Source of the DNA: Treponema sp.
GTDB taxonomy: Bacteria; Spirochaetota; Spirochaetia; Treponematales; Breznakiellaceae
Direction of reading: 5' to 3'
DNA: 25,082 nucleotides
NCBI GenBank assembly: GCA_031289935.1
Contig: JAITON010000035.1
Coordinates: 1 to 25,082, forward strand
Shown: positions 3,267 to 20,791 of the stretch, one piece after another
Layout: each line of letters starts with the position of its first letter
Position numbering within the stretch: position 1 is the first letter of the stretch
The notes under the pieces: model-generated
What the model saw: only the letters and a program-made list of their open reading frames with translations
Told to the model about the DNA's origin: nothing
Databases searched by the model: none
Made by a program: the position numbers and the translations under genes

Positions 3267-3964
3267 GTTCCCGAAAAAAAATACTCATCGTTGATGATGA
3301 GTCTGCTAATCTTGATTTTTTTGATGTCATGCTTTCCAAACTGGGTTTCAGCGTTGAGCGGGCGGAGAACGGGTTTACGGCCTTGGAAAAGGTGAAGTGG
3401 TTTTTTCCGGACCTAATTCTTTTGGACAATATTATGCCCAAGATGTCCGGCTGGGAGCTTACCAGGATTCTGAAGGAAGATATCAAGCTTCGGGAGATCC
3501 CTATCATCATGCTTTCGGGGCTCGCGGACGTGAAGGACAAGGTCGAGGGCTTTGAGCTGGGGATAGACGACTATATTACCAAGCCCTTTAATTTTTCCGA
3601 GGTTTTGGCCCGGATCCGGGCGGTGTTGCGAAACCGGGAATTTTTCGCCCAGATCGTGGTCCGGGAGACCCGGCTGGGTATGGCCGAGGCCCTGAACACC
3701 GACCTGAAGCAAGGTGTGGCGGAGTTCCACAGGGGTATGGACGAGCTGGACCGCCGTATCGTCGCCCTGGAGAACGGCTCTCTCAAGGGGGATGCCCTCC
3801 TCTCGGGTCTTAAGGACCAGAGCGAGCGGGTGCGGAAATCCGTTGCGGAACTGGATGTTCGAATTGAAAAAACCACCTCTGAGTGGGCGGACCTCAAGAA
3901 AGGCGAGATAGGCATCCAGGCATTGGAAAAGCAGATACGCATGAAAGCGGAGCAAGAGGAATAG
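3263..3964 (+). CDS. Response regulator: OmpR-like receiver domain with a C-terminal coiled coil and no recognisable DNA-binding domain
   Basis: ILIVDDE...DLILLDNIMPKMSG...PIIMLSG...DDYITKPF..EVLARIRAVLR, followed by about 100 aa of heptad-like helix. GTGA overlap with lnt. Confidence 0.9.
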   Translation: MSSRKKILIVDDESANLDFFDVMLSKLGFSVERAENGFTALEKVKWFFPDLILLDNIMPKMSGWELTRILKEDIKLREIPIIMLSGLADVKDKVEGFELGIDDYITKPFNFSEVLARIRAVLRNREFFAQIVVRETRLGMAEALNTDLKQGVAEFHRGMDELDRRIVALENGSLKGDALLSGLKDQSERVRKSVAELDVRIEKTTSEWADLKKGEIGIQALEKQIRMKAEQEE

Positions 3965-3966
3965 TT

Positions 3967-4386
3967 ATGGCAAAGACTGAAGGTAAAAAGAAGGACGAAA
4001 AGATCGTTATCTTCGATAATAGTACGGATTTTAACGGATTTCTCCGGTTCAAGGAGACGCTTTGTATTCAGGGGAAATTCCGGGGGACCATTGAGGCCGT
4101 GGGGGTCCTTATTGTGGACCGGGGGGCGATGGTAGAAGCCGACCATATTTCGGTGAACTCCCTCTTTGTCTATGGAACGGTGATCGGGGCGGTTCGTGCC
4201 TTGGACAAGGTGGATATGTTGGCCGGGGCCGAGATCCGGGGGGATGTAACCGCCGCCCGGCTCAGGATCGCCGACGGGGTACTTTTTGAGGGCCAATGCA
4301 GTATGACCCGGGCAGAAAACGAGGTGGAAATCTTCTCCCGGCCCACCGAGGAGATCAAGGCCGAGCTCCAGCGTGCCCATGCCTGA
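3967..4386 (+). CDS. Bactofilin (polymer-forming cytoskeletal protein)
   Basis: Beta-helix repeats FNGFLRFKETLCIQGKFRGTIEAVGVLIVDRGAMVEADH...VYGTVIGAVRA...IRGDVTAARLRIADGVLFEGQC. Start placed at ATG 3967, just after the regulator's stop. Confidence 0.92.
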   Translation: MAKTEGKKKDEKIVIFDNSTDFNGFLRFKETLCIQGKFRGTIEAVGVLIVDRGAMVEADHISVNSLFVYGTVIGAVRALDKVDMLAGAEIRGDVTAARLRIADGVLFEGQCSMTRAENEVEIFSRPTEEIKAELQRAHA

Positions 4387-6799: not shown

Positions 6800-7003
6800 A
6801 TGCAAAAGAAGATTCACCCCAAGTACGAGGTAACGAAGATTACCTGCGCCTGCGGGAATGTGATCGAAACCCGCTCGACCGTGAAGGATATCAAAGTGGA
6901 AATTTGCTCCGCCTGCCACCCTTTCTTTACGGGCAAACAGAAGCTGGTGGATACCGCCGGCCGGATTGAGCGCTTTAGAAGAAAGTACAATATCAAGGAT
7001 TAG
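6800..7003 (+). CDS. rpmE: 50S ribosomal protein L31 (zinc-binding, C+ type)
   Basis: MQKKIHPKY...CACG...[26 protein letters not shown]; GGAGG SD. Confidence 0.97.
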
Positions 7004-7040
7004 TCCCGGCCGTCTCGGGAAGCGCTAAAAAACACCATCG

Positions 7041-7086
7041 AGCGTGCGCTAGGGCCCTCGTGCAGCGTGCGCCAGGGTTCTCGTGC
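7041..7086. repeat. Tandem duplication, 2 x 23 bp
   Basis: AGCGTGCGCTAGGGCCCTCGTGC (7041-7063) and AGCGTGCGCCAGGGTTCTCGTGC (7064-7086); 20/23 identical. Confidence 0.9.
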
Positions 7087-7097
7087 CTTCAGAGCGC

Positions 7098-7220
7098 CTG
7101 ACAGCCTCGTATCAGCCGCTCAAACCAATGGTGGGGTGTCACTCAAACCAACGGTGGTGTGTCACTCAAACCAACGGTGGTGCGCGGCATGCAAGCATGC
7201 TTCTCAAACCAACGGTGGTG
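7098..7220. repeat. Array of 18-bp modules, with a 23-bp period in part
   Basis: CTGACAGCCTCGTATCAG (7098-7115), then CTCAAACCAA(T/C)GGTGG(G/T)G at 7119, 7142, 7165 and 7203. Spacers are tgtca, tgtca, then 20 nt containing the palindrome AAGCATGCTT. Confidence 0.92.
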
Positions 7221-7242
7221 CGTCCGGTGGGCCGGGGCCGCG

Positions 7243-8664
7243 TCAGCGCCTGTAAAGCTGGTCGTGCGCGGCGAGCCGGGTACGGATTTCTGCGGCCAGA
7301 TAGAAGGAGCCCGTGCCCAGTACCGGGAGCCCCCGCTGCCGGCCCGCTTCCAGAGCCGTGTCAATGGCCCTTCCGGTGCCGGGAATCAGGCTCAGTTCCG
7401 GTTTGGCGCTCCCCGGCGGCAGCCGGTCCAGGGCGGCCTGGAAGAGCCGGCAAGTTTCCTCGGGGAAGCTCGTCTTAAAGCTCCCCGGCTTCGTGATGAT
7501 AATCCGGGAAAAGCGGGGGCAGAGTATCTCCGCCATGCCGCCAGAGTCCTTCCCCGCCGCGCAGCCGAAAAGGAGGATCCCCCCTTCCCCGTAGAGGCGG
7601 CTAAAGGTATCCAGAGAAAGGGCCGCGCTCCGGGGTGTGTGGGCCCCGTCGATGATAACCGGGGGATCTTCCCGGACCCGCTCGAACCGCGCCGGGAGCC
7701 TGGAGTTCCACAGCCCCTCCCGGATAGCGCGCTCCTCTATACCGGGGAAGGCGGCTCTTACTGCCAGGATCGCGGCGGCGGCGTTCATCCCCTGAATCTC
7801 CCCGGGAACAGGCAGCGAAAGGGCCCGGAGCGGGGGGGCCAGGCCCGAGGGAGGATCGGGCTTAAAAGAGAGGGAGCAGCGGCTGCCCTCCTTATCAACC
7901 GAGATATCTTCTATAACAACCCTCTCGGGGAGGTAGAGGAGGGGCGCGCCCTTGGCTCTGGCCCCGGCGCGGAACACCTCCAGGGCCTCGGGCTCCTGCT
8001 CCATAAGGATCAGGGGCCTCCCCGGTTTGATGATCCCGGCCTTTTCCTCCGCGATGGCGGCGAGGGTATCCCCCAGGTACTCGGTATGCTCAAGCTCAAT
8101 CGACGTGATGACCGAGACCCGGGGATCGAGAATATTGGTGGCATCGAGCCGGCCTCCCATGCCGGTCTCCACCGCCAGGGCGCCCGTACGGGCAAGACGG
8201 CAGCAGATGAAGAAGTAGAGGGTCAAAAGCTCGAAGAACGAGGGGGCTTCGCCGCCGGGATGCCGGGGGTCGAAGAGGGGATGGCGGCCCCCTTCGAGCG
8301 CTTGTACGTATCCCTGGAGCTCCCCGCCTGCGGCCTCGTAGAGGGCTTCCTCAAAAAAAGAGTTTCCCCGGGTAATCCGCTCCCGGTACTCCGTAACATG
8401 AGGGGAGGTATAGCGGCCCGGCTCAAGCCCGGCGGCTTCCAGGATGCCGGCAATCATGGCCGTTACCGAGCCCTTGCCCTTGGAACCTGCCACGTGAATG
8501 GCCGGGGCGCAACGTTCCGGCCGGCAAGCCAATTCGGCGAGGATTTCCATACGGTCCAGGCGGAAGCTTCGGGAACTCTGGCCCCGCTCCAGGCTGATAA
8601 AGCCCGCAAGCCAGCGGAAGACCTCGTTGGAGCTTCTAAAGGGAAGGTGTTTCACGTCAATCAT
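7243..8664 (-). CDS. folC: Bifunctional folylpolyglutamate synthase / dihydrofolate synthase
   Basis: IHVAGSKGKGSV, GRYTSPHV..YRERI, FFELLT, VETGMGGRLDATN, ITSIELEHTEYLG.TL..IA.EKAGIIKP, IIDGAHT. Confidence 0.95.
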   Translation of the reverse strand: MIDVKHLPFRSSNEVFRWLAGFISLERGQSSRSFRLDRMEILAELACRPERCAPAIHVAGSKGKGSVTAMIAGILEAAGLEPGRYTSPHVTEYRERITRGNSFFEEALYEAAGGELQGYVQALEGGRHPLFDPRHPGGEAPSFFELLTLYFFICCRLARTGALAVETGMGGRLDATNILDPRVSVITSIELEHTEYLGDTLAAIAEEKAGIIKPGRPLILMEQEPEALEVFRAGARAKGAPLLYLPERVVIEDISVDKEGSRCSLSFKPDPPSGLAPPLRALSLPVPGEIQGMNAAAAILAVRAAFPGIEERAIREGLWNSRLPARFERVREDPPVIIDGAHTPRSAALSLDTFSRLYGEGGILLFGCAAGKDSGGMAEILCPRFSRIIITKPGSFKTSFPEETCRLFQAALDRLPPGSAKPELSLIPGTGRAIDTALEAGRQRGLPVLGTGSFYLAAEIRTRLAAHDQLYRR

Positions 8665-8693
8665 CCAGCGCTAGATTCCCCCCTTTCCAGGGC

Positions 8694-8722
8694 TTGTGTC
8701 AATGGGTTTGCGGCGTTACCAT
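8694..8722 (+). promoter_or_regulatory. Possible sigma70 promoter of murC
   Basis: TTGTGT (8694-8699), 17 bp, TACCAT (8717-8722), ending 6 nt before the murC ATG. A perfect TTGACA on the minus strand (8702-8697) faces folC but has no good -10. Confidence 0.35.
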
Positions 8723-8728
8723 GGGAGT

Positions 8729-10186
8729 ATGAAACCGGTAATCTACATGGTGGGTATCAAGGGGACGGGCATGTGCGCTCTGGCGGAACTGCTCCATAAT
8801 ACGGGGGCCGAGGTCCGGGGCTCGGACCGGCCCGAAACCTTTTATACCGACCTCATCCTCCAGGACCTGGGCATCCCCTACTATGAGTCCTTCGAGGCCG
8901 CCCATATTGATGAGCGGGCCGAACAGGTGATTTATTCGGCGGCCTATTCCCCCGGCGCTAACCCGGAGCTCCTGGAGGCCCGGCGCCGGGGCATCCCGCT
9001 GATCAAGTACAGCGATGCCCTGGGGGAATACTCGGCCCGTTTCGACTCGTCGGGCATAGCCGGGGTCCACGGCAAGACCACCACCACGGCCCTTACGGGG
9101 ATGCTGCTCCGGGGGGCAGGTCTTCCCGCCCAGGTTTTGGCGGGCAGCGCCGTGGGCAGTTTTAGTGGCTCTGAGGGCGGGCGCTCTACCCTCTGTCTGG
9201 GGGACAAGTACTTTGTGGCCGAAACCTGCGAGTACCGGCGGCACTTCCTGGCCTTCCATCCCCGGCGCATCGTTCTGACCAGCGTGGAAAGCGATCATCA
9301 GGATTACTACCCCGGTTATGCTGATATTCAGGCCGCCTTCCTGGAATATATCGCCAAACTGCCCCAGGGCGGGGAGCTTATCTACTGTGCCGATGACGCG
9401 GGGGCCCGGGAAACTGCGGCCCGGGCCCTAGGGGATAGACCGGATATCCGGGCCGTCCCCTATGGATTCAGCGCCGGAGGGCCCTTCCAGATTACCGGTT
9501 TCCGGGCCGGGGCCGGGGGGCTGGTCTTCGGTCTGGCAGGGCTGGACGGGGAATGGCATCTTAGGATCCCCGGCCGGCACAGCGCTCTGAACGCCGCCGC
9601 CGCCCTGGCCCTGACCGATTCCCTGGTGCGGGCGGAATTCGGCCTCTGGTCCACGGAGCGGCTCGAAAAGGCCCGGACCGCTCTGGGGGAGTTTCGGGGG
9701 AGCAAACGCCGCTCGGAGATCCTTGGCGAATCAGGGGGCGTTCTCTTTATGGACGATTACGGCCACCATCCCACGGCCATCAGGACCACCCTGGCAGGGC
9801 TTCGGGACTTCTATCCCGGCCGCAGGATCGTTCTTTCCTTTATGTCCCACACCTACTCCCGCACTGCCGCCTTGCTGGACGAGTTTGCCGCTTCCTTTGA
9901 GAGCGCCGATGTGGTCTTCTTTCACAAGATTTACGCCTCCGCCAGGGAGGGTTATACCGGGGGCGTTACGGGCCGGACCCTTTACGAACGGGCCAGAGCA
10001 CAAACCCGGCCTGAAAGGCAGGAACATATCCACTATACCGAAGAATGGGCCGATGCCGCCGGGCCTCTGGAGCAGATCTTACGGGCCGGGGACCTCTTTA
10101 TCACCCTGGGGGCCGGGGACAACTGGAAGCTGGGTAAGATGCTGATGGATCGTTACCACCCCCGTCCAGAGGAAGCCCTCCTATGA
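8729..10186 (+). CDS. murC: UDP-N-acetylmuramate--L-alanine ligase
   Basis: YMVGIKGTGMCALA, VRGSD, IYSAAY, IAGVHGKTTTT, FVAETCEY, IPGRHSALNA, DDYGHHPTAI, HTYSRT, LGAGD. Start moved to ATG 8729 (MKPVIY). Confidence 0.95.
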   Translation: MKPVIYMVGIKGTGMCALAELLHNTGAEVRGSDRPETFYTDLILQDLGIPYYESFEAAHIDERAEQVIYSAAYSPGANPELLEARRRGIPLIKYSDALGEYSARFDSSGIAGVHGKTTTTALTGMLLRGAGLPAQVLAGSAVGSFSGSEGGRSTLCLGDKYFVAETCEYRRHFLAFHPRRIVLTSVESDHQDYYPGYADIQAAFLEYIAKLPQGGELIYCADDAGARETAARALGDRPDIRAVPYGFSAGGPFQITGFRAGAGGLVFGLAGLDGEWHLRIPGRHSALNAAAALALTDSLVRAEFGLWSTERLEKARTALGEFRGSKRRSEILGESGGVLFMDDYGHHPTAIRTTLAGLRDFYPGRRIVLSFMSHTYSRTAALLDEFAASFESADVVFFHKIYASAREGYTGGVTGRTLYERARAQTRPERQEHIHYTEEWADAAGPLEQILRAGDLFITLGAGDNWKLGKMLMDRYHPRPEEALL

Positions 10187-11061
10187 AAAGTATGACCGGC
10201 TATGCCGTTGCGGCCCGGCAGGACGAGGGACTCTCCCTTTCGGTGGAACTCCGGGGCTATAACAGCCGCTTCCTCGACATTGTCATGAATCTGCCGCCCT
10301 TCCTGGCTCCCTTTGAGGGGCGTATTCGGGAATATCTGGCGGGCCGCTTCCGCCGGGGGAAGATTGAGCTCAGCCTGAAGTGTAAGGAGTACTACGCAGG
10401 TTTCCCGGTAAGGCTGAACCGGGAGGCGGTCCGGGCCTACGCCGGTGCCATCGGCCTTTTGGCCGCCGAACTGGGGTCCAGCGAGAAGCCCCCGCTCCCG
10501 GTCATCCTGGGCCTGGAAGGGGTGCTGGAGATCGGGCAAGAGCAGACCGGGGAGCAGCGATGGGACCGCATCGAACCGGCCCTTTGGGCGGTCCTTGGGG
10601 AAGCGGCGGACCAGTTTGAGACCGAGCGGCTCCGGGAGGGGAGCCATACCGAGGCGGCGATCCTGGGCCTGCTTGCCGGGATGGAAGACCAGGCCCGGTG
10701 TATTGAGAAACGGGCCCCTGAGATGGAAGCCGTCTTTCAGGAGAACCTCCGCCGCCGTTTCGCCGAGCTTTTGGGGGAGGCCGTAGACGAGGGCCGTGTC
10801 CTCCAGGAAACCGCCGTTCTCCTGGTGAAGTACAGCATCGCCGAAGAGATTTTCCGGCTCAAGGCCCACTTCCAGGAATTCCGGATCGAGACTGAGCGGG
10901 CTCCCAGCCCTGGTAGAAAGCTCGACTTCCTCTGTCAGGAGATCAACCGGGAAATCAATACTATCGGTTCCAAGGTCCCGGACCTGGAAGTAAGCCGCGC
11001 CGTGGTAGCCATGAAGGACGCTCTGGAGGATATCCGGGAGCAGCTCCGGAATGTGGAGTGA
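10183..11061 (+). CDS. yicC: YicC/YloC-family endoribonuclease
   Basis: MKSMTGYA...SVELRGYNSRFLDI...RRGKIEL...R.REG...K.SIAEEI.RL..H...GRKLDFLCQEINREINTIGSK...EDIREQLRNVE. Confidence 0.95.
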   Translation: MKSMTGYAVAARQDEGLSLSVELRGYNSRFLDIVMNLPPFLAPFEGRIREYLAGRFRRGKIELSLKCKEYYAGFPVRLNREAVRAYAGAIGLLAAELGSSEKPPLPVILGLEGVLEIGQEQTGEQRWDRIEPALWAVLGEAADQFETERLREGSHTEAAILGLLAGMEDQARCIEKRAPEMEAVFQENLRRRFAELLGEAVDEGRVLQETAVLLVKYSIAEEIFRLKAHFQEFRIETERAPSPGRKLDFLCQEINREINTIGSKVPDLEVSRAVVAMKDALEDIREQLRNVE

Positions 11062-11084
11062 AGTATTTCGCAACTATTTTTCAA

Positions 11085-11141
11085 AAACTGGGTCTAAACT
11101 AGGTCTAAAGGCTTGACAAGGTTACCGGCTCCTTGTATTCT
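11085..11141 (+). promoter_or_regulatory. Sigma70 promoter of the MMPL operon, preceded by an 11-bp direct repeat
   Basis: AAACTGGGTCT-AAACTAGGTCT-AAA (11085-11109), then TTGACA (11113-11118), 17 bp, TATTCT (11136-11141). Confidence 0.7.
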
Positions 11142-11179
11142 TGCACTTGAACCGGATTTAAGAGAAGGGGCGTGGGCGG

Positions 11180-13864
11180 GTGCGTAAATTGTTTAAATAT
11201 CCTTGGCTTATCGTGGGGCTCATCGCCCTCATCACGGTATTTTTTGCCCTCCAGCTTGGCCGGGCCCAGTTGGACAACAACAATTTCCGCTTTGTGCCTG
11301 CCGATGATCCTGCCCTGCTGACCTCACGGTATATTGATGAGACCTTTGGTAGTTCTCTGTTTATCCTGGTGGGGCTGGAACGGAAGTACGGCACGGTGTT
11401 TGACGGGCCCTTCCTGAAACGCATGGGGGAATACGTTGACCTAATTGGTGATATCCCGGTGGTGGGCACTGTAACTTCCCTAATCAACACCGAATATATC
11501 ACTTCCCGGGATGGTGCGGTGGTGGTAGAAAAACTGCTGGATGAAAATTTCTCCGGGACCTCCGCCGAGATCGCCGAGCTTAAACGGCGAATTTTTTCCT
11601 GGGATATGTACGAACGGGCCCTGGTCTCCGATGATTTTACCGCCACACAAATACTGGTACCCCTGAATATCAGCATGGAAAAGGCCGGAAGTCCCGAAAT
11701 AACCCGCGAGTTTGAGAAAATCCGGGACACGGCCCAGGAAATGTTTGCAGGGCTGGCCAATGTCCATGTGGCGGGTATGCCAGTGATCAGCGCCACAGTG
11801 AACGAGGCCACGGGGGCGGACCTTATTTTATTGGTGCCCCTGGTTGTTATTGTGGTCCTGGGGGTACTCTTCTTCTCCTTCCGCCGCTTTACCGCCGTGG
11901 CGCTTCCCCTGATAACCGTCGTGGTGGCCACAGTCTGGTCCATGGGCGCCATGCCGCTTTTCGGCGTAAAGCTTTCTATTATATCTACGGTGCTGCCGGT
12001 GATTCTGGTAGCCGTAGGGAGCGCCTACGGTATTCATGTGGTAACCCACTATGTTTCCGAGCGGGGCCATGGCCTCATGACCGCCGAAGCCCACAGGGAA
12101 CTGGTCTTTAGCCTGGTACGGAAGATAGGCCGGCCCGTGTTCCTGGCTGCCCTGACCACCTTTGTAGGTTTCTTTTCCTGTTGCTTTACCACGGTGCTCC
12201 CCATTCGGGAATTCGGCATCTTCTCCAGTTTCGGCGTCATTGCATCCTTTGCCGTGGCCCTGACCCTGATTCCAGCGCTGCTTCTGATCCGTGGGCCAAA
12301 ACCCCTGAGCGGCCAATCGCGCAGTAATGCTGCTCAGAACCTTCCCCCGGCGGAGAGCCGGTTGAGCAATGTTACGGTGCATATCTTTACCGCCCTAGTT
12401 GAGCGGAAGATGCTGGTCCTCTTTATCGTAGCCATGGTAGCGGCCCTTTCGATATACGGCATGACCAAGGTTATCATCGACAATGTCATGGTGGAATACT
12501 TCAAAGAGGACACGGCTGTTTATAGATCCGATGTCTTTATTCGGGAGCAATTCGGCGGTTCCAAACTCGTGAATGTGGTGATGGAGGCCGAGACACCGGA
12601 AATCCTCCTCCACCCCGATTCTCTGGCTGCTATGGACGGGCTGGGGACTTATCTTACCGCCAATGTTCCCGAGACCGGCAAGGTGATGGGATTTACCTCC
12701 CTGATTAAGCGGATAAACCAGGTTTTTAACGCCGATGAAAGCCCCGAGGGTATTCCTCCCCTGGCGCCGTCCACTGGAGCGCTGGAAGGAGCTGTTTTTG
12801 AGGAGTTCCCAGAGGATACCGTCTCCGAGGCCGGTGATTTTTCCTGGGACTTTGGATTTGACGAATGGGGTTCGGACGATAGCTTTGCTTCAAGTGATAG
12901 TTTTACTATTGATGAATACGATTATTACGGCATTGACGATGCGGAAGCGCCGGTCATGACAGCGGCGGAGCTTATGGACCTCCTGGACCGGGCTGCCTCG
13001 GAAGGGAGCTTCCTAAACGGCTCAGAGCTGGTCAGGGAGCTCAAGCGGCTCACGAACTACGAAGGGGCGGCCTATTACGAAATCCCTAGTGACCCGGCAA
13101 AGTACGGCCGGGAAAGCCCCGAGGAACTTCAGCGGTTGATCTCCAATTATATGGTCCTCCTTTCGGGCAATATCAGCGATTATGCCAACGATCCGATAGC
13201 CCCCACGGCCATTAAGACTACGGTCCAGCTCCGTACCGTGGGAGAATACGACAGCGATCGTGCCCTCAAGGAAATAGACGAATATATTGCCGCCAACTTC
13301 CCCGGCAATGTCAAAACCACCGTGGGCGGTGCTGCCCTGGTAGAGTTTTCCCTGAACGCTCTGGTGGTCCAGTCCCAGCTTATCTCCCTGGTTATATCGA
13401 TTGTTATGGTGTTCATCATCGTGGCTCTATCGAATAGATCCCTGGCAGCGGGCCTCATCGGGATTGTACCCCTGACGATTTCAATACTTATCAACTTTGG
13501 CGTCATGGGTTTCTTGGGTATCAAGCTCAACCTGGGAACCGCCATGGTCGCCAGTGTTTCTATAGGCATTGGTATTGACTACACGATCCATTATCTGGAA
13601 GCCTTCCTGCAGGAGTACCGGGCCTCGGGCGGGAAGGGGGACTACCTCCGCAGAACCTTTGCCACCTCGGGCAAGGCCATCATCATCAATGCCCTTTCGG
13701 TGGGTGCGGGTTTTGCGGTGCTCCGCTTTTCTCAGTTTAACATGCTCGCCGATCTGGGCCTCCTGATTGCCCTGACCATGGGAACCAGCGCCCTCTTGAG
13801 CCTCACCGTAATTCCGGTGCTCCTCACGGTATGCAAGCCTAAATTTATCGCCAGGGGAGTGTAG
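11180..13864 (+). CDS. MMPL / RND-superfamily inner-membrane transporter
   Basis: Two repeats of (1 TM, large periplasmic domain, 5 TM); DETFG..LFILVGL, VAGMPVI, IREFGIFSSFG, EYFKEDT..YRSD.FIREQFGGS, IGIGIDYTIHY, TSGKAIIINA. GTG start with a purine-rich SD. Confidence 0.93.
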   Translation: MRKLFKYPWLIVGLIALITVFFALQLGRAQLDNNNFRFVPADDPALLTSRYIDETFGSSLFILVGLERKYGTVFDGPFLKRMGEYVDLIGDIPVVGTVTSLINTEYITSRDGAVVVEKLLDENFSGTSAEIAELKRRIFSWDMYERALVSDDFTATQILVPLNISMEKAGSPEITREFEKIRDTAQEMFAGLANVHVAGMPVISATVNEATGADLILLVPLVVIVVLGVLFFSFRRFTAVALPLITVVVATVWSMGAMPLFGVKLSIISTVLPVILVAVGSAYGIHVVTHYVSERGHGLMTAEAHRELVFSLVRKIGRPVFLAALTTFVGFFSCCFTTVLPIREFGIFSSFGVIASFAVALTLIPALLLIRGPKPLSGQSRSNAAQNLPPAESRLSNVTVHIFTALVERKMLVLFIVAMVAALSIYGMTKVIIDNVMVEYFKEDTAVYRSDVFIREQFGGSKLVNVVMEAETPEILLHPDSLAAMDGLGTYLTANVPETGKVMGFTSLIKRINQVFNADESPEGIPPLAPSTGALEGAVFEEFPEDTVSEAGDFSWDFGFDEWGSDDSFASSDSFTIDEYDYYGIDDAEAPVMTAAELMDLLDRAASEGSFLNGSELVRELKRLTNYEGAAYYEIPSDPAKYGRESPEELQRLISNYMVLLSGNISDYANDPIAPTAIKTTVQLRTVGEYDSDRALKEIDEYIAANFPGNVKTTVGGAALVEFSLNALVVQSQLISLVISIVMVFIIVALSNRSLAAGLIGIVPLTISILINFGVMGFLGIKLNLGTAMVASVSIGIGIDYTIHYLEAFLQEYRASGGKGDYLRRTFATSGKAIIINALSVGAGFAVLRFSQFNMLADLGLLIALTMGTSALLSLTVIPVLLTVCKPKFIARGV

Positions 13865-13955
13865 CCGTGTTGCGGTCCCCGGCCTTGATCTTTATTCAGA
13901 GGAAGTTCTTCGAAAACTGAAGTTTCCGAATAAGTCTTATGTGAGGAGTAGATGT

Positions 13956-14768
13956 ATGAAAAGAATGGCGTTAGTAAGCCTGCTGTTGGCCTTGCCGGTC
14001 CTGGCTTTTTCCCAAAACGCGGCGGATATTGTGTCCGCCTCCCGAAACCGGATACCTTCGGGGGCCATAAGCACGGTTTCCAAGATGGTAATTACCGATG
14101 CTAATGGCAGAACTACTACCCGGTATATGTACCAGTTTACCAAGGACTTCCCCAACGGGAGCAGGACCGTGGTCGCCTTCCCCGAAAGCAGCAACGGAAG
14201 AAGACTGAACGATAGCAGCATTGCCAATACCCGCTTCCTTACCATCGCAAATTCTGGCGGGGGTACCAGCCAGCGGATATTCCTCCCCGAGACCCGGAAG
14301 GTAACTCCCATTTCCAGCTCCGACGGGTCCAAACCCTTCCTGGGTACCGACTTCTCGAGCGATGATATGTCCTCCCTTAACCGTGCCGCGAACCTGGATA
14401 CCCACAGCCTGCTTCGGGAGGAACAGTTTTCGGGCCCCTTTACCGGCGGGACCCGGGCCTGTTATGTTATCGAGTCAAAGCCCAAGGATAGTTCCTTCCA
14501 GTATTCCCGGATGGTCCAGTGGATCGATAAGGAGACGCTGATCATCTACCGGATTGAACTCTACGATCAAAAAAACGTCCTTACCAAGCTTGTGGAAATG
14601 GGCAACGTCAAGGAATTCCAGGGGAGGCTCACCCCTACCATGACCAAGGGAACCACCGTGGGTAAAGGGACCAGTACCACGATCGAAATACAAACCATAA
14701 GCTACGATGCCAGTATTCCAGACGGTGTATTTACCGACTACTATCTCCTAAACGGAAGGTCCCAGTAA
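13956..14768 (+). CDS. Periplasmic LolA-like ('outer membrane lipoprotein-sorting') protein
   Basis: SPase I-type signal MKRMALVSLLLALPVLAFS; motifs TRFL, IFLPE.RKV..IS, FLGTDFSSDDM, CYVIESKPK, YSRMVQWIDK, RIELYD. GAGGAG SD 7 nt upstream of ATG 13956. Confidence 0.85.
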   Translation: MKRMALVSLLLALPVLAFSQNAADIVSASRNRIPSGAISTVSKMVITDANGRTTTRYMYQFTKDFPNGSRTVVAFPESSNGRRLNDSSIANTRFLTIANSGGGTSQRIFLPETRKVTPISSSDGSKPFLGTDFSSDDMSSLNRAANLDTHSLLREEQFSGPFTGGTRACYVIESKPKDSSFQYSRMVQWIDKETLIIYRIELYDQKNVLTKLVEMGNVKEFQGRLTPTMTKGTTVGKGTSTTIEIQTISYDASIPDGVFTDYYLLNGRSQ

Positions 14769-16381
14769 TGAAAAAGACCGTAATACTATTGACCCTTATG
14801 CTGGCCGCCCTGGGCCTGGCAGCTCAGGAGGATTTTGATTTCGACTTTGGTTTTGGCGATGAAGGGAGCCAGGACTCGTCCCTTCCCCTGGTTTCCATGA
14901 GTGGGGAAATCTCCACGGGTTTTACCCTCTTTCCCGGCGAATGGGAAAGCTGGGATAGCTTTAAGGCTGTAGAGCTTGGGGATATTGTTTCCGGGGCCCT
15001 TAATTTCAGCCTCTCCGGCCCCTATGCCGACGCCTATATCGGCCTCGGTCTTACGCCCAATTTTGAGGACCCCGCCAAGATCCTTAGTCTGGACGAGGCA
15101 TGGATACGGGCCTTTTTCGGCGGCTTTACCCTTGAGGCCGGGCTCCTTAAGCTTTCCTGGGGCCGGGCCGATGTCCTGGGCCCCCTGGACGTGGTCAATC
15201 CCCTGGATTATTCGGACCTCTCCAGCCTCCAGGATCAGCAGGAGATGAAGCTTTCCCGTCCCATGATCCATGTGTCCTATTGGTTCTCCGGCGATGTGCC
15301 CTTGAGCATTGAGGGGGTCTACCTCCCCTGGTTCCAGGGCGATCTCTACGCCACCGAGGGCCGCTGGGTCGCGCAGCAGTTGACGGATACGACCCAGGCG
15401 ATGCTGGACGCCATAAACGGCGCCCTTACACCTACCCTGGGCCCGGGTTACCTCAGCCTGGCGGATATTTCCGGCATGGGGGGGGGCGTCCAGACCACCG
15501 GCCTGGAATACAGCCAGTGGGGCCTTCGTATGACCACGACCCTGGGGCCCGTGGACCTGGGGCTCCAGTATTACAGCGGTTTCCCCTCCCGGCCCGAAGC
15601 GGTGTTAAATAGATCCGCTATGTCGACTATTGACGCCGACGCCGCTACGCTTGCATCTGCCAGCGTGGCCGCCCAAACCGCCCAAACCACCTATCAGACG
15701 GCCTTGACCGCACTTGGTACAAAGATAGCTAGCGCTCCTAGTGATGCTAGTATTCCGGGACTAGCGGCGGCTGTCGATCTGGCCTATGGGGCCCTTCTAG
15801 CCGCCTCGGCTGCCGCCGAGTCGGCAGCCCTGGCTTTGGAGACCGCCCTGGGGAACGCCTACTCTATCGGTTACAGCCGCTACCATCAGGTCGGCATCGA
15901 CTATGCCCAGTCTATTTGGGGCTTCAATATCCGGGCCGAGTTTGCCGCCAACCTGACGGCAGACCTGGACGGGACCAACGGGGCGGTCTATAACCCATCC
16001 CTGGCCTGGGCCCTGGGCGTTTACCGGGACCTTTTCTGGGGCGTCGATATGCTCCTCCAGGCGAACCAGAGCATCCGGCTTTTTAACGGCCAGGTGGGCA
16101 GCGATCCGGTCTACGATGTGGAGGCCGCCGCCCGGGATCATGCTACTGCCACCCGGATCACCCTGTCGTTCTCCAAAGCCTTTGATGATCTAACCCTCCG
16201 GTTCACCACGCTCTGGGGCATCGAGGACATGGATTTTCTCATCATACCCAGCCTGAGCTGGGCCCAGGGCGGCCTGGGTTTAAGTCTTACAGGGGGCGTC
16301 TTTCTGGGCGACTCCAAAGGTGAGCTGGGACAATTCGCCAAGCACAGCTACCTCAAGCTGGGCATGAGCTACTCATTCTAG
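14768..16381 (+). CDS. Predicted outer-membrane beta-barrel protein (DUF1302-like) of the MMPL module
   Basis: Signal peptide; many amphipathic strands (LDEAWIRAFFGGFTLEAGLLKLSWGRAD, YHQVGIDYA, FNIRAEFAANL); C-terminal beta-signal-like YLKLGMSYSF; start overlaps the upstream stop (TAATG). Confidence 0.75.
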   Translation: MKKTVILLTLMLAALGLAAQEDFDFDFGFGDEGSQDSSLPLVSMSGEISTGFTLFPGEWESWDSFKAVELGDIVSGALNFSLSGPYADAYIGLGLTPNFEDPAKILSLDEAWIRAFFGGFTLEAGLLKLSWGRADVLGPLDVVNPLDYSDLSSLQDQQEMKLSRPMIHVSYWFSGDVPLSIEGVYLPWFQGDLYATEGRWVAQQLTDTTQAMLDAINGALTPTLGPGYLSLADISGMGGGVQTTGLEYSQWGLRMTTTLGPVDLGLQYYSGFPSRPEAVLNRSAMSTIDADAATLASASVAAQTAQTTYQTALTALGTKIASAPSDASIPGLAAAVDLAYGALLAASAAAESAALALETALGNAYSIGYSRYHQVGIDYAQSIWGFNIRAEFAANLTADLDGTNGAVYNPSLAWALGVYRDLFWGVDMLLQANQSIRLFNGQVGSDPVYDVEAAARDHATATRITLSFSKAFDDLTLRFTTLWGIEDMDFLIIPSLSWAQGGLGLSLTGGVFLGDSKGELGQFAKHSYLKLGMSYSF

Positions 16382-16387
16382 GAGTCC

Positions 16388-18550
16388 CTAGAGACTCAGG
16401 CTCCCGGTATAGGCATCGTAGGCTTCCCGGGCGGCCCGCGCCTCTTGAGCGGCGGCGGTAATCTGGGCGGCCAGCTCGTCGAGCTCTGTATCCTGGGCGG
16501 CCATGCGGCGCAGGTAGTCCTGGCCCTGGGGCGTGGTATTCCCCGCAGCCTCCAGGTTCCGTCTGATACGGTCCTGTTCCGCCGCCAGGGCCGTGCGCCG
16601 GGCCTCAAGCTCCGCCACCGCCGCCGTAGCGTTGTCGGCCTTCCGCCTGAGTTCCGCCGCCTGGCTAAGGGCGGCGCGGACAGGGGCCGGGAGCTCCCCG
16701 TTGGCGGCGTAGCTCAAAAGACTCTCCAGCCGGAGCGATCCCAGGCTTACCCGTTCCGAAAGGGGCAGTTCCTCCTGCACCCTAAAGACCCGGTCCTCTC
16801 CGGCCTCCAGGTCCAGGGCAAAGCGGTAGAGGCTGCTGGTCCGTTCCCGGAATAAGGCCGGTTCCGCCAGGGCCGCTCCCCCGGTAACCGGGTGCTCGAT
16901 CAGCAGGCGCTTTGCCCCGGCAGCCTTGTTGCTCAGCGAATACTCCCATTGATAGATGAGCTTCCGGCTGATAGTCATGACCCCGCCGCTCAGGGATACG
17001 GAACTCAGCGTCCGGGAGGATGACGAGGCGAGGCTCCCGCTTACCGCCAGGTCTTCTCCCCAGGAAATAAGCCGCTTCTCGCCGCCGCTCAGGAACTCGA
17101 TAAGGGCGTCCCCCGCGTAGAGCCCCCCCTCGTATACCGTGATGGGCCCCGCCGGGAGGCTCATCCCCGTGGTATTGGTAATTTCCGCGGCAATGGCCGG
17201 GTGGATGCTCCGCCCCCCCGCAGCCTGAGCCCGGCTCCCGGAAAATACCAGGAACTTCTCCGCGTCCAGGCCGGCCGATACCAAAGGCAGCATAGCGCTC
17301 TGATGCCGGGGAATGGACACCCGCCCGGGCAGGGTAAAGGCGAACTGTTCAGCCAGCGCCTCCCCTGCCGCCGTATTGAGGCCGTTCCCGGCTGTAGCCG
17401 GGACGGCAGCAGCCAAGGGAGCCGGCTGGGGGGCTGCCGCCGTTCCGGCGGCTGCCGGGGCGTAGCTCATATCCATGGCCGATTCTACCGTGAGCGTGGA
17501 ATTCCTGGCCGGGGCCTTGGCCTGTTCCGCCGCTTCGGCCCCCGTGTCGTAAGTCTGGGCTGCGGCAGACCCCGCGATAGCCAGGGGCTCCACCGGCCGG
17601 CCCACATAGTAGGGCGGATAGAGTTCCTGGATAAAGGACACGGGCCGGCCCGCGATCAGGGAAAGCTCCACATCGGCCCAGTCCCGGTCGCTGCCGTTGT
17701 CGATAATAGCCCAGCCCTGGAAGTAGGGCCGGTCCCCGCTCAGATCCAGCCGGTAGGAGACCTTCCAGACCGGGGCCGCGGCCACGTAGCTCAGGGACAC
17801 TTCCCGTTCAGCCTCCCCGGGCAGGCTGATCCGGAGCTCCCGGGAATCGCCGCTCCGGCGCTCCATGAGCAGGTCCAGGGCCCGTTCAAAATCCGCCCGG
17901 GTCAGGGGGTCCGTAAAATAGAGCCGCTCCATATCCGCCAGCCAGATCTGCCGGATTCCCTCCCCGGTATAGAGCGACAGCCAGGCCGCCCCGGTAAAAG
18001 GCCCGCCGCCGGAATAGCCCTGCACGTATTCCACGCCCAGGATCCGCCCCCGGATACGCTCCGGGGCATAGACCTCCAGTTCCTCCCCCCGCAGGCTGCC
18101 CAGGATTTCCCCCAGGGCCTGTTCCCCGGAAAGGTCCACCCGGAGGCTCCTCAGGCTGCGGTAGACCGTATCCTCCGAGGGGTAGGTTACCGAAGGCGAG
18201 GCCGAGGCGGGGTCCCGGATCACCAGGGACTTTAAGACATCGTTGACATCCCCGGCCGGGAAGGAGAGGCTAAAAAGAACCGGCCCCCGGAAGCTCCCGC
18301 GAAACTCAAAATAGCCCACCCCGGAAGCAAACAGGGCGACCCTCCGCAGCTCTGGAGCGGGCAGCTCTGGAGCTAGGGCGCCGGCCTCAGGAGCCGGGAC
18401 ACCGGCCTCCAGGGCAGTCTCCCGGCCCCCCCGCGCAAAGAGGCCGGCGGGCAGCAGGAGGCCCAAGAGCCCGCATAAGATCAGCCTGAGCGCCAGCCTG
18501 CGCGCCAGCCTGCGCGCCAGCGTCCGCGATAGCCTATTCAATTTCTGCAT
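16388..18550 (-). CDS. Secreted DUF4139/DUF4140-domain protein
   Basis: VALFASGVGYFE, VNDVLKSLVI, WKVSYRLDL, FQGWAIIDN...DW.DVELSLIAGRP, TG..LPAGPITVY, LISWGEDL; C-terminal coiled coil; signal ending LFARGGRE. The start is uncertain: ATG 18550 was chosen because starts further upstream overlap more of the next gene. Confidence 0.8.
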   Translation of the reverse strand: MQKLNRLSRTLARRLARRLALRLILCGLLGLLLPAGLFARGGRETALEAGVPAPEAGALAPELPAPELRRVALFASGVGYFEFRGSFRGPVLFSLSFPAGDVNDVLKSLVIRDPASASPSVTYPSEDTVYRSLRSLRVDLSGEQALGEILGSLRGEELEVYAPERIRGRILGVEYVQGYSGGGPFTGAAWLSLYTGEGIRQIWLADMERLYFTDPLTRADFERALDLLMERRSGDSRELRISLPGEAEREVSLSYVAAAPVWKVSYRLDLSGDRPYFQGWAIIDNGSDRDWADVELSLIAGRPVSFIQELYPPYYVGRPVEPLAIAGSAAAQTYDTGAEAAEQAKAPARNSTLTVESAMDMSYAPAAAGTAAAPQPAPLAAAVPATAGNGLNTAAGEALAEQFAFTLPGRVSIPRHQSAMLPLVSAGLDAEKFLVFSGSRAQAAGGRSIHPAIAAEITNTTGMSLPAGPITVYEGGLYAGDALIEFLSGGEKRLISWGEDLAVSGSLASSSSRTLSSVSLSGGVMTISRKLIYQWEYSLSNKAAGAKRLLIEHPVTGGAALAEPALFRERTSSLYRFALDLEAGEDRVFRVQEELPLSERVSLGSLRLESLLSYAANGELPAPVRAALSQAAELRRKADNATAAVAELEARRTALAAEQDRIRRNLEAAGNTTPQGQDYLRRMAAQDTELDELAAQITAAAQEARAAREAYDAYTGSLSL
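18482..18523. repeat. In-frame 12-bp tandem repeat in the signal-peptide n-region
   Basis: CAGCCTGAGCGC, CAGCCTGCGCGC, CAGCCTGCGCGC, then partial CAGCGT; encodes LARR-LARR-LALR. Confidence 0.85.
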
Positions 18551-18932
18551 CCAGGGTTTTGTTGTATGCCTCTGCCAGGGCATTGGTATTCTTGATGATG
18601 ATATACACCGCCACAAAGGGGCCAACCACGATGACCGCCCCCATGAGATACCAGAGCAGCACGATACTCCCCCCCTCTTTGAAGCTCAGGCCGTATTTGG
18701 GCGCATAGTCCTGCAAACGGTCTCCCAGCTTATAGAACCATACCAGATCGTAGATACCCAGGGTGATGAATCCCAGGAAGAAATACCTGAGTAAACCGGC
18801 CGTGTGCCTGCCATCGTCCTGGCAGATACGATTTATATCCCTGGCCAGTTGGTAAATCCAGTACAGGTTATAGATACCCAGGGTAATAAACGAAAGCAGT
18901 ATCCACCCCACCAGTCCTCGTCTTTTGATCAT
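18534..18932 (-). CDS. DUF4234-like small membrane protein
   Basis: AAGGAGG SD 5 nt before ATG 18932; two copies of [FI]ITLGIY.L.W.Y.L; four predicted TM/hairpin segments. Confidence 0.8.
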   Translation of the reverse strand: MIKRRGLVGWILLSFITLGIYNLYWIYQLARDINRICQDDGRHTAGLLRYFFLGFITLGIYDLVWFYKLGDRLQDYAPKYGLSFKEGGSIVLLWYLMGAVIVVGPFVAVYIIIKNTNALAEAYNKTLDAEIE

Positions 18933-18976
18933 CTCGTCCTCCTTATACATCGCGTGTATTGCCCGCCGGCATAATG

Positions 18977-19083
18977 TCAGCCACTCAAACCACCAGTGGT
19001 GTGCCGGTCTGAAAGCCTGGTTTCAGCCACCCTGATCACTGGTGATCAGCCGGTCTGATCACCGGTGATCAGCCGGTCTGATC
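18977..19083. repeat. Array of 18-bp palindromic modules with a 23-bp period, related to the 7098-7220 array
   Basis: CTCAAACCACCAGTGGTG (18984), CTGAAAGCCTGGTTTCAG (19009), CTGATCACTGGTGATCAG (19032), CTGATCACCGGTGATCAG (19055, a perfect palindrome) and partial CTGATC (19078). The last three spacers are 5 nt (ccacc, ccggt, ccggt). Confidence 0.92.
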
Positions 19084-20752
19084 CATGCTCCAGGAGCAGG
19101 GTCCTGCCGGGTTGGTCGCAGACCTCGGGGGGCCCGTAGTACTGGATGGCCCCGGGGTAGAGAAAGCAGGTCTTGCCCGCCCAGATGTCCCGCAGCGCGT
19201 CAAAGGCTCTAAAGGGCGCGCCCTCGAGCGCTACCAGGGCCTTTTGGATCACCGGCTTTTGCTGGCCCTGGCGCTGTTCCATGTTCATCATCATGGTCAG
19301 GGGCACCCCGCCGGCCAGCCAGTCCCCGGCCCGGGCCCGGAGGTTCCGCACGCTGGAAAGGTAGCCGGTAAGCCCCGAGGCAATCAGTACAAAGGAGCTG
19401 AAGCCCAGGGAATAGCAGTAGTCCGCGTCAAAGTTTGAGGGGAAGGCGCAGCGGCCCTCGTAGCCGAAGAAGTGGGCCAGCCCGCTGAACTTGCCCCGGT
19501 AGATGCCTTCCCGCTGGAGGCTATGGAGCCGCTTTGCCACCATGCCGATGAGGAGCTTCTCGGTCTCGATCCGGGACACCTGCACGTTCCCGTGGGGGTC
19601 CCGCTCGGCCAGGAGTTCCCGGGCAATATCCGGGGGCAGGCTCCCCAGGGTCTCCGCCGGGGCCGGGGAAAGCTTGCCCCGGAGCCAGGCGATCTGGGCC
19701 GTAAAGGAGCCTTGGCCGGTGAATTCCTTTTCGTCCGCCGCCATAATATCGTTAAGCTCATTGATGAGCCGCTTCATCTCGGGGATAAATTCTACCAGGC
19801 CCTCGGGGATGAGGACCACGCCGAAGTTCTCCTGGTTTTCCGCCCGCTTCACAATAGACGCGCAGATCTGGTCCACGATTTGGGCCAGGGAAAGCCCCTT
19901 GGCTGCTACTTCCTCGGAGATCAGGCAGATATTGGGCTGGGTCTGGAGGGCGCATTCCAGGGCGATGTGGCTGGCCGAGCGGCCCATGAGCTTGATAAAG
20001 TGCCAGTATTTCTTGGCCGAATTGGCGTCCCGTTCAATGTTGCCGATGAGTTCGCTGTAGGTCTTGCAGGCCGTGTCGAAGCCGAAGGATGTTTCTATAT
20101 ACTCGTTTTTCAGGTCCCCGTCGATGGTTTTGGGGCAGCCGATCACCTGGATGGGGGAGCCCCGTTCCGTAAAATACTCGGCCAGCAGGGCTGCGTTGGT
20201 GTTGGAATCGTCCCCGCCGATGATCACCAGGGCGTCCAGGCCCAGCTTTTCCGCATTGGACAGGCTCGCCGCGAACTGTTCCGGGGTCTCGATCTTGGTC
20301 CGCCCCGAGCCGATGATGTCAAAGCCCCCGGTGTTACGGTACCTGTCGATGATTTCATCCGTCAAGAGGAGGCGTTTGTTTTCGAGCAGCCCGCTGGGGC
20401 CGCCCAGAAACCCGTAGAGGGCCGATTCGGCGTTCCCCTGCCTGAGCCCGTCGTAGAGGCCCGCGATCACGTTGTGGCCGCCCGGGGCCTGGCCGCCCGA
20501 GAGAATGACCCCCACGGTGAGTTGTTTCCGGGTGAGTTGTTTTCGCCGGATGTCCTCGTGTTGAGCCCGCACAAAGCTGGCCAGGGGTTTGCCGTAGCTG
20601 TGCGGGAACAGGGCCCGCAGTTCCTCCCGGTCCTTTGCCGCCTCGGTGGCTTCCCCCAATTGGACGGCGATATCGCCGGCAGGCTGGGTCAAACTCTTCG
20701 GGAGTTTCGGTTGATACCCGTACCGGGCCTTTTGCAGCAATGAAATGTCCAT
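19046..20752 (-). CDS. pfp: Pyrophosphate-dependent phosphofructokinase (long type)
   Basis: [104 protein letters not shown] before ATG 20752. Confidence 0.96.
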
Positions 20753-20791
20753 ATCTATCTCCTTCAAATGAGCGCTTTCCCCTCGAGAGCT

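Follow-up and report, generated by a model that had tools for sequence, protein, structure and literature searches.

We have discovered a mosaic, non-coding family of 23-bp repeat units ("bricks") in the genome of a termite-gut spirochete, a Treponema sp. (genome G000). Both repeat loci of the window, a contig of 25,082 nucleotides analysed over its whole length, are copies of this one family, and bricks of the same family are dispersed to at least seven loci. They sit at gene ends, their units have been duplicated in place, and their hairpin stems covary. We tentatively favor a model, plausible though short of probable, in which these are REP-like hairpin bricks that a trans-acting enzyme placed at gene 3' ends and that slippage then multiplied in situ.

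Structure of the two repeat loci

Strict 23-bp spacing runs through loci A and B, both of them head-to-tail arrays; their bricks are of three types (P, K and H), and different types are joined in register within an array. Each brick comprises an 18-bp palindrome or dyad and a 5-bp linker, and all P, K and H units run head-to-tail, with no inverted pairs. The original prediction had matched 7112-7138 to 18977-19003 at 22/27 and 7098-7115 to 19009-19026 at 15/18; both values were reproduced, as was the described module form (18 bp, CT[CG]A start, 5-bp linkers). Tandem Repeats Finder and a repeat search gave period 23 at 7041-7086 (2 copies), at 19023-19083 and at 7119-7182, where 2.8 copies are followed, beyond a 15-bp insertion, by a fourth unit (7203-7225). 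Both loci do lie at gene 3' ends, as had been proposed: the rpmE stop codon is at 7001-7003, and that of a PPi-dependent phosphofructokinase (19046-19048) falls inside array B. The features of locus A are as follows.

6800-7003, plus strand: rpmE, ribosomal protein L31 (Pfam PF01197, E 1.5e-32)
7017-7041, plus strand: "head" of the composite element, AAGCGCTAAAAAACACCATCGA
7041-7086, plus strand: two H bricks, each an 18-bp near-palindrome (GCGC.AGGGCCCT.G.GC) with a 5-bp linker (Tandem Repeats Finder period 23, 86% match)
7098-7118, plus strand: one degenerate P brick, CTGACAGCCTCGTATCAG plus linker (15/18 to 19009-19026; CTGA-N10-TCAG, then CC)
7119-7187, plus strand: three K bricks, CTCAAACCAAYGGTGG.G plus 5-nt linker, period 23 (Tandem Repeats Finder 2.8 copies, 95% match)
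7187-7202, plus strand: 15-bp insert, the "T" module, palindrome GCATGCAAGCATGC; the single register break
7203-7225, plus strand: fourth K brick
7243-8664, minus strand: Mur-ligase-family gene converging on array A (Pfam Mur_ligase_M, Mur_ligase_C)

Array A starts 14-17 nt past the rpmE stop codon, and its last brick is 18 nt from the stop codon of the Mur-ligase-family gene. The duplication at 7041-7086, previously taken to be unrelated, in fact belongs to the same family: it has the 18-bp near-palindrome and 5-bp linker, and the H brick adjoins K bricks at C193 too (C193:8546-8567). Positions 7017-7063 are 94% identical to C193:8521-8567, and weaker copies of the head occur at C129 and C202. 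The T module and the K brick that follows it have a 95% identical counterpart on the other strand at C145:8039-8078. Locus B contains the following features.

18534-18932, minus strand: DUF4234 gene, downstream of array B (Pfam PF14018, E 9e-34)
18970-18984, plus strand: "L" boundary motif, CATAATGTCAGCCAC
18984-19008, plus strand: one K brick, CTCAAACCACCAGTGGTG, plus linker
19009-19031, plus strand: P brick, AAAGCC variant (CTGAAAGCCTGGTTTCAG plus CCACC)
19032-19083, plus strand: two P bricks (CTGATCAC[TC]GGTGATCAG plus CCGGT) and a 6-nt partial unit (Tandem Repeats Finder period 23, 96% match)
19046-20767, minus strand: PPi-dependent phosphofructokinase, whose reading frame runs into array B

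The ribosome-binding site of the DUF4234 gene (GGAGGA) is at 18939-18944. With one mismatch, the L motif also bounds the C146 array (C146:4321-4335), and the K brick is identical at 21/23 positions to K bricks of the metagenome contig L245. The AAAGCC variant of the P brick forms arrays of 8.8 copies at C146 and 5.3 copies at C205, and an array related to the P bricks of 19032-19083, the second of which is a perfect 18-bp palindrome, is found at C145. Array B encodes the last 11 codons and the stop codon of the phosphofructokinase; homology to at least 20 relatives ends at about residues 561-563 of 573, and the C-termini in relatives read ...LEHP or ...LEHEQ before the stop.

An assembly artefact was ruled out because locus B is covered without a gap by an independent Logan contig of the source run, the unit variants are structured, and arrays recur in other assemblies. 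The description of the modules as palindromic holds for P and H, whose hairpin arms measure 6-9 bp, and fails for K (CTCAAACCA..GTGGTG), in which the dyad is only 4-5 bp. Relative to shuffles, locus B folded with a z of -5.7 and locus A no better (z -0.2). Rfam returned no match in the window at the gathering score. Intrinsic terminators were rejected, since a consensus scan of both loci found no terminator-like site of the kind in which a GC-rich hairpin precedes a T tract.

Dispersal and array periods in the genome

The assembly searched comprises 1.72 Mb and is 69% complete. Modules were also found at C193, C145, C146, C205 and C151, so the family extends beyond the two original loci to seven. 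A preference for the 23-bp step is likewise evident, with 30 non-coding arrays at this period against 3 at 24 bp. The remaining counts were 67 at 21 bp, 20 at 22 bp and 10 at 20 bp; a simulated first-order Markov genome yielded 0, 1 and 1 arrays at periods 21, 22 and 23. These counts strongly support the fixed-step repeat system that had been suggested, and do so genome-wide. The 117 non-coding tandem arrays of period 21-23 fall into ~96 sequence families, of which 71 are singletons. The boundary modules (head, L and T) are common to several loci. K and P bricks also occur on one related termite-gut metagenome contig at ~85-90% identity, and the K-module pattern had no match in 40 genus representatives.

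Among P bricks (24 units at seven loci), the stem foot CTGA/TCAG is invariant and stem pairs 5 and 6 covary (A-T, T-A, G-C, C-G). Their linkers read CCACC, CCGGT or CCGCT, with CC[AG][CG][CT] kept in 22 of the 24 units. Loop inversions and compensatory stem changes are found within arrays. Signs of growth in place include blocks of identical neighboring units at C146 and, at C145, a two-unit higher-order period (98% match at period 46).

Arrays favor convergent gaps (odds ratio 2.8, p = 0.0014), and 38% of 3'-facing array sides lie within 30 bp of a stop codon. Judged from gene and unit coordinates, brick orientation relative to the abutting 3' end is identical in six of the seven loci, the exception being C151. 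Searches for a recurrent gene beside 22-23-bp arrays and for a DUF4234 paralogue beside other arrays found none. No precise empty site was obtained at rpmE, where relatives carry ordinary hairpins or terminators; rho-rpmE synteny is kept in relatives and the gene downstream of rpmE differs in all of them. We attribute the lack of empty sites to the relatives belonging to other genera and to the broken synteny.

RAYT-like genes

The original prediction had pointed to a RAYT or IS200-type tnpA flanked by the modules; the 69%-complete assembly contains none. Indeed, no Y1/HUH gene or fragment (PF01797, RAYT-like) was detected in G000 by HMM, tblastn or a profile of relatives' genes. RAYT-like genes, whose best NCBIfam match is REP-associated tyrosine transposase, are common in this bacterial family and reach 117-146 copies per genome. 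In two relatives, G003 and G011, a 23-bp array of hairpin-plus-linker units lies within ~300 bp of 4 of the 11 RAYT-like genes, against a chance expectation of ~0.4 (a rough estimate from sampled array density). Counting all RAYT-like genes checked in relatives for flanking 23-bp arrays, 4 of 31 were positive. Of the RAYT-flanking hairpins of relatives, CGCAGGGTGCTGCG also occurs as an array in this genome, at C109, and TCCCACTACGCTGGGA as an orphan array of 15.6 copies in G003. Neither a K nor a P module lies beside any of the ~110 RAYT-like genes examined, including none convincing near 80 metagenomic ones. At 20 RAYT-like loci in G045, G041, G014, G043 and G044, where the gene is highly amplified, no 23-bp array was found, and the genes of G045, G041 and G014 lowered our confidence in a clean rule that equates a 23-bp period with RAYT. 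G019 has four RAYT-like genes and almost no arrays. No convincing hairpin is present in K bricks or in many 21-bp arrays.

Protein family X

X is a protein of ~220 aa with an N-terminal three-helix bundle and a C-terminal fn3-like beta-sandwich. It belongs to no Pfam family, and fold and family searches yielded nothing beyond a generic fn3 domain. Almost always, an X gene is preceded, 45-150 bp upstream, by a 21-bp array whose sequence is unique to it, the period rarely being 20, 42 or 126 bp instead. This holds directly upstream of 7 of 8 full X copies in G000, and for ~21 of the 22 full-length X loci retrieved from G000 and 10 other genera, each with a differing array; X genes on unrelated metagenome contigs likewise have upstream arrays. 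X and its private upstream 21-bp array may constitute a new gene-plus-array module in gut spirochetes and probably Bacteroidota, an idea that we put forward with considerable reserve.

Comparison with known repeat systems

REP and BIME sequences are short intergenic imperfect palindromes (~20-40 nt) with a flanking motif, such as GTAG, at which cleavage or targeting takes place, and RAYTs are the REP-associated tyrosine transposases. In REPINs (Pseudomonas) and BIMEs, units form inverted doublets or alternate in orientation, and RAYTs are usually single-copy. The bricks resemble these elements in being short, imperfectly palindromic and intergenic, present in many copies and in mosaic clusters after gene 3' ends, and in having a conserved flanking motif, the linker, as a candidate for the role of GTAG; moreover, RAYT-like genes adjoin arrays of the same geometry in two relatives. 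Copies are intergenic (seven loci for this family, 50 non-coding arrays of period 22-23), and P and H form the expected hairpin palindrome, K only weakly. Unlike REPs and BIMEs, these arrays are strictly head-to-tail at a 21-23 bp period, with dozens of unrelated units in one genome and no inverted or alternating units, and this assembly holds no RAYT, hence none flanked by the same repeats. The amplification of RAYT-like genes in this bacterial family also departs from the usual single copy. The REP/RAYT reading of the original prediction is supported only partly and indirectly: the brick geometry, the conserved linker, the covarying stems and the position beside stop codons fit it, and the missing HUH (Y1) transposase and the direct, tandem arrangement of the units do not.

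Plasmid iterons and centromere-like arrays consist of 19-23 bp direct repeats beside rep or par genes. The present arrays share direct repeats spaced about two helical turns apart, and those linked to X share a position directly upstream of a gene, with its own repeat for each paralogue. They differ in occupying chromosomal intergenic sites at the ends of housekeeping genes, in numbering more than 100 and in having no rep or par gene; X is acidic and lacks a winged-helix fold. An iteron or partition-site reading was rejected on architecture, the neighbors being rpmE, the Mur ligase, phosphofructokinase and DUF4234 genes. A CRISPR array was also rejected on architecture, as the units abut with only the conserved 5-bp linker between palindromes.

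BrickBuilt, an element of Porphyromonas gingivalis, is a minisatellite with a 23-nt unit that lies within a MITE (Klein et al. 2015, PMC4596501). It is always intergenic, occurs at ~20 loci, and has imperfect units without spacers and a leader and tail common to loci (PMC4596501). Our arrays are likewise 23-nt tandem units without spacers, intergenic and multi-copy, with segments common to loci. BrickBuilt, however, consists of one sequence family, in which the leader and tail are ~300 nt long and the terminal inverted repeats are IS5-like (PMC4596501), whereas the boundary modules here measure 15-25 nt and we noticed no terminal inverted repeats at them; the bricks are palindromic, with several types per array, and ~96 families have the same period. 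P. gingivalis also carries the 41-nt repeats of MITE464/PgRS.

Discussion

In the model that we favor, a trans-acting enzyme that reads hairpin-plus-linker geometry would seed bricks beside stop codons, and the geometry itself, a hairpin of 16-18 nt plus ~5 nt, would fix the 21-23 bp step. Arrays may then grow and shrink in place through slipped-strand or unequal exchange, while template switching or selection could maintain the complementarity of the arms. The enzyme presumably acts on single strands; an HUH/RAYT-like protein, absent from this assembly, would be the leading candidate. Upon read-through from neighboring genes, P and H bricks might form stacked hairpins in the 3' UTR.

It is possible, if rather unlikely, that the arrays instead belong to a new system tied to protein family X, which would impose the fixed step; orphan arrays, including the 23-bp ones of the window, would then be products, targets or remnants of that system, and we grade this extension as equally doubtful. 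X tracks array load: in unbiased samples, 505 kb of X-positive genomes yielded 23 arrays and 741 kb of X-negative genomes only 2, a density about 17 times higher with X (Spearman 0.585, p = 0.011, a value that ignores the shared ancestry of the genomes). Only ~10 of 87 arrays in G000 adjoin X, which makes this association more than trivial. Within sampled contigs, 22-23-bp arrays occurred only in the X-positive G003 and G011, and G000, which has at least 15 X matches and no RAYT-like gene, is itself X-positive. With 5,045 cluster representatives the family is a large one, and its Atlas neighbors include Bacteroidota clusters. Against this, the arrays adjacent to X all have period 21 (one 22) and never 23, neither the window nor the surroundings of any P, K or H locus contain an X gene or remnant, X differs from typical DNA-binding proteins in being mildly acidic (median pI 6.2), and the X-positive G015, G013 and G014 had no array in small samples.

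A neutral origin, in which a lineage-specific quirk of replication or repair favors tandem duplications of ~21-23 bp and terminator-like hairpins already present at gene ends are merely copied and lengthened by slippage, with neither mobility nor function, appears improbable to us. It would accommodate the ~96 unrelated unit sequences that have only their period in common, the many singletons, the arrays without a hairpin, the block structure typical of slippage and the excess of in-frame 21-bp duplications in coding regions (42, against 21 of 18 bp and 13 of 24 bp). It does not readily account for different brick types in register in one array, for a conserved linker and stem foot around a covarying inner stem, or for the very tight link with X genes. 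The same bricks and boundary modules recur at seven loci and in another organism, which requires dispersal or strong constraint. Finally, the perfect 18-bp palindromes of locus B (CTGATCACCGGTGATCAG) could be read as operators of a dimeric transcription factor controlling the DUF4234 gene, since two near-identical copies lie ~90-150 bp upstream of its start and, on sequence inspection, K and P bricks share the 12-bp dyad core A[TC]CACC[GA]GTG[AG]T. We consider this very improbable: the same bricks occupy promoterless convergent 3'-3' gaps (locus A, C193 and C146), consensus scans of both loci found no sigma-70-like promoter, there is no regulator gene nearby, and more than 100 arrays of other sequences have the same geometry.

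Conclusions

Arrays of this kind break short-read assemblies, as many contigs here end in them, and they can rewrite gene ends, as the 11 array-encoded phosphofructokinase codons illustrate. With its kept linker and stem foot and its covarying arms, the brick family resembles what an enzyme that reads structure would act on. X is a large unannotated family; nearly every X gene has a 21-bp array to itself, and the number of arrays in a genome goes with the presence of X. Tandem intergenic arrays that are unrelated in sequence and have a unit length fixed at 21-23 bp (or 41-42 bp) are represented by BrickBuilt and PgRS of P. gingivalis alongside this genome, and either lead, the bricks or X, would, if confirmed, explain the origin of a common class of bacterial minisatellites.

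Repeat loci in the window

The best description of this spirochete's repeat arrays is a new variant, tandem and of fixed geometry, of intergenic repeats of the REP/BIME or BrickBuilt type, the latter a 23-nt minisatellite inside a MITE of Porphyromonas gingivalis (Klein et al. 2015, PMC4596501). Each unit of the window family, here termed a brick, combines an 18-bp dyad or hairpin with a 5-bp linker; bricks are of types P, K and H and are accompanied by short boundary modules (head, L and T). The original prediction of a dispersed repeat family was confirmed and now extends beyond two loci, and its identities between them (22/27 and 15/18) were exact on recheck. Repeat search and TRF gave period 23 at each window array.

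Features of the two window loci
7017-7225: locus A, between the rpmE stop codon (7001-7003, + strand) and the stop (7243) of a converging Mur-ligase-family gene
Head, 25 nt: first element of array A
7041-7086: two H bricks
7098-7115: one degenerate P brick
7119-7187: three K bricks
Palindromic insert, 15 nt: GCATGCAAGCATGC, between the third and fourth K bricks
7203-7225: fourth K brick
18970-19083: locus B, in order boundary motif CATAATGTCAGCCAC, a K brick, an AAAGCC-type P brick, a pair of TCACC-type P bricks (the 18-bp palindrome of one is perfect) and an incomplete unit

Locus B folded far better than shuffled sequences (z of -5.7 on one strand and -4.8 on the other), and locus A folded no better than shuffles. 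No Rfam family, sigma-70 promoter consensus or T-tract terminator was found at either locus. Positions 16111-19298 are spanned gap-free by an independently assembled contig of the source run. Other short repeats in the window are one of 12/24 bp in tandem (CAGCCTGCGCGC, 3.3 copies, 18482-18535) at the 5' end of a DUF4139 gene, overlapping the end of a DUF4234 gene, and an 11-bp repeat (AAACTAGGTCT, 2.3 copies, 11085-11109) in the gap preceding an MMPL gene.

Locus B overlaps, at 19046-19083, the 3' end of a PPi-phosphofructokinase gene, and translation places the stop codon within a brick. Homology to more than 20 relatives ends at about residues 561-563 of 573, and the relatives' proteins terminate in ...LEHP* or ...LEHEQ*. 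The C-terminus of a housekeeping gene has been rewritten by repeat insertion. In this frame the native stop is lost and 11 codons of the array are read as a tail.

The brick family beyond the window

The genome under study (G000; 1.72 Mb, 229 contigs, 59.7% GC, 68.8% complete) was the sole member of its genus among those compared, and its rho and rpmE group it with spirochetes of the termite-gut Treponema clade, close to Breznakiella homolactica and to MAGs named 'Treponema sp.'. Bricks of the window types are arrayed at five further loci of this genome.

Further brick loci, by contig
C146:4337-4530: 8.8 units
C205:3789-3911: 5.3 units
C145:7931-8048: opposite strand
C151:8198-8327: window-type bricks
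C193:8524-8680: head, H brick, two K bricks, P bricks

Pairs of loci have boundary modules in common: head and H brick agree at 94% between locus A and C193, T module and K brick at 95% between locus A and C145, and locus B has its L motif in common with C146. In the 24 P units compared, the four outer pairs (CTGA/TCAG) are invariant, pair 5 covaries via four Watson-Crick types and pair 6 via two, and the linker is CCACC, CCGGT or CCGCT in 22. Brick orientation relative to the abutting gene 3' end, read from coordinates, is alike in 6/7 loci, the exception being C151. Next to the long P-brick array of C146 is a zinc-ribbon gene of FmdB type with 21-bp repeats after it (together 3585-4280); these repeats (3813-4005) are apparently in frame, within a low-complexity tail.

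K and P bricks are also present on a JGI termite-gut contig (L245:2888-3060), where five K units are 21/23 identical to the K unit of locus B; other dispersed repeats are common to this contig and G000 at 80-88% identity. A search of 40 genus representatives gave no K brick. Another dispersed element, about 125 bp long, is shared at 73-86% identity between this contig (L245:2259-2381) and G000, where it lies mostly at contig ends (C224:73-194, C9:189-313, C9:17488-17614, C227:95-219). In Spirochaetia bacterium PG1894_110, three successive hairpins with different stems and an identical loop (CCATTAAAACGG / CCATTGAAACGG) lie 3' of rpmE (L002:7925-8030); they resemble a further hairpin family whose loop is conserved, and they occupy the place that array A takes in G000.

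Arrays of 21-23 bp across the genome

TRF identified 621 tandem-repeat loci in G000. Genes were called with a crude codon model (85% coding), and the loci outside them show a sharp peak at periods 21 (67), 22 (20) and 23 (30), against 10 at period 20 and 3 at period 24; a first-order Markov simulated genome gave 0, 1 and 1 arrays at periods 21, 22 and 23. The predicted preference for 23-bp spacing was upheld. These 117 arrays, 87 with at least three copies, fall into about 96 unit-sequence clusters (71 singletons, 25 multi-locus). Many G000 arrays lie at contig ends, indicating that arrays break assembly. Hairpin potential is raised, though not in every array (median z -1.4 at period 23, -0.75 at period 21). 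Arrays frequently touch stop codons and are enriched in convergent gaps (19/55 vs 80/503; odds ratio 2.8, p = 0.0014).

Arrays bear signs of growth in place and of template switching mediated by hairpins: runs of identical neighbouring units, higher-order periods of two or three units, compensatory changes in stems (C97) and loops that are inverted (C124, C11). In-frame tandem duplications in coding regions are in excess at 21 bp (42 loci, vs 21 for 18 bp and 13 for 24 bp), which suggests that the 21-bp preference acts within genes too. One such duplication lies inside the DUF4139 gene of the window (18365-18409).

A protein family beside the arrays

Clustering of genes adjoining G000 arrays yielded one enriched family, here called X (5/8 members, p = 2e-4). 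X is a mildly acidic protein of about 220-230 aa that matched no Pfam or PHROG family; its AlphaFold model (pLDDT 94.9) has a bundle of three helices at the N-terminus and an fn3-like sandwich at the C-terminus. An array lies immediately upstream of 7/8 full G000 copies, at 21 bp (once 22, once 42) and each time with a different sequence.

X genes with arrays in G000 (L109-L115)
C139:1914-2880
C229:3036-4135, with a MatE transporter gene on one side and cysS on the other; array, TTGACA-17-TATCAT promoter and ribosome-binding site precede X in that order
C134:5719-6821
C156:578-1470
C209:1551-2512
C103:11646-12475

Among the full-length loci fetched from G000 and ten other genera, about 21/22 have an array 45-150 bp upstream, of period 21 and rarely 20, 42 or 126; unrelated metagenome contigs show the same arrangement. 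Copies number 45, 31, 21 and 20 in the relatives G011, G003, G002 and G015 and at least 15 in G000; none was found in 12 other genomes of the bacterial family or 16 of other families in the order. A library of 1.84 billion proteins holds 5,045 cluster representatives of X, and its Atlas neighbours include Bacteroidota clusters. In an unbiased sample, made up of each genome's first contigs, array density is 4.6 per 100 kb in X-positive genomes (23 arrays, 505 kb) and 0.27 per 100 kb in X-negative ones (2 arrays, 741 kb), a load about 17 times higher with X (Spearman's rho 0.585, p = 0.011, a statistic that ignores phylogeny). Most arrays are not beside an X gene.

REP-associated transposases

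No REP-associated tyrosine transposase (RAYT) was found in G000 with PF01797, with tblastn using relatives' proteins or with a profile built from them. RAYT-like genes are common in the bacterial family (146 in G014, 117 in G045, 29 in G041, 13 in G011, 5 in G003); their best NCBIfam match is 'REP-associated tyrosine transposase', which scores 71 bits, more than IS200 but short of the 80-bit cut-off. RAYTs are ordinarily single-copy, so amplification is unusual. The amplified genes of G014, G045 and G041 (e.g. L351-L368) have conserved IS-like flanks (GATAGGACAGACCTCGCCGTCAAAAATAAAT...).

Within about 300 bp of 4/11 RAYT-like genes of G003 and G011 lie 23-bp hairpin-plus-linker arrays (L253, two arrays; L257; L261; L265, both sides). 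One flanking hairpin also forms a six-copy, 23-bp-spaced array in G000 (C109), and another a 15.6-copy orphan array in G003. Such arrays occur at 0/20 RAYT-like loci of G045, G041, G014, G043 and G044, and G019 has four RAYT-like genes with arrays nearly absent. At 80 metagenomic RAYT homologues no K or P brick was found; other short repeats (GGGACAGAGCT type) were present. The suggested REP-like reading is therefore plausible as far as brick geometry goes and has partial support in relatives, but it is unproven for the window family and G000.

Origin and role of the arrays

Tentatively, we favor a mechanism in which a trans-acting, structure-reading enzyme would seed hairpin-plus-linker bricks at gene 3' ends; the bricks would then enlarge in place through slippage and be made uniform via template switching. 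An array system linked to X is a rather doubtful alternative: X is the only feature found here that both tracks array load across genomes and is present in G000, but the P, K and H loci have no X gene or remnant nearby, and X-adjacent arrays belong to the period-21 class, none to that of 23, so that X fits the 21-bp class better than the 23-bp class of the window. Neutral minisatellites with a fixed step, the other main rival, are unlikely, and that locus B is an operator is very improbable. Any role of the arrays in RNA stability or termination is inferred.
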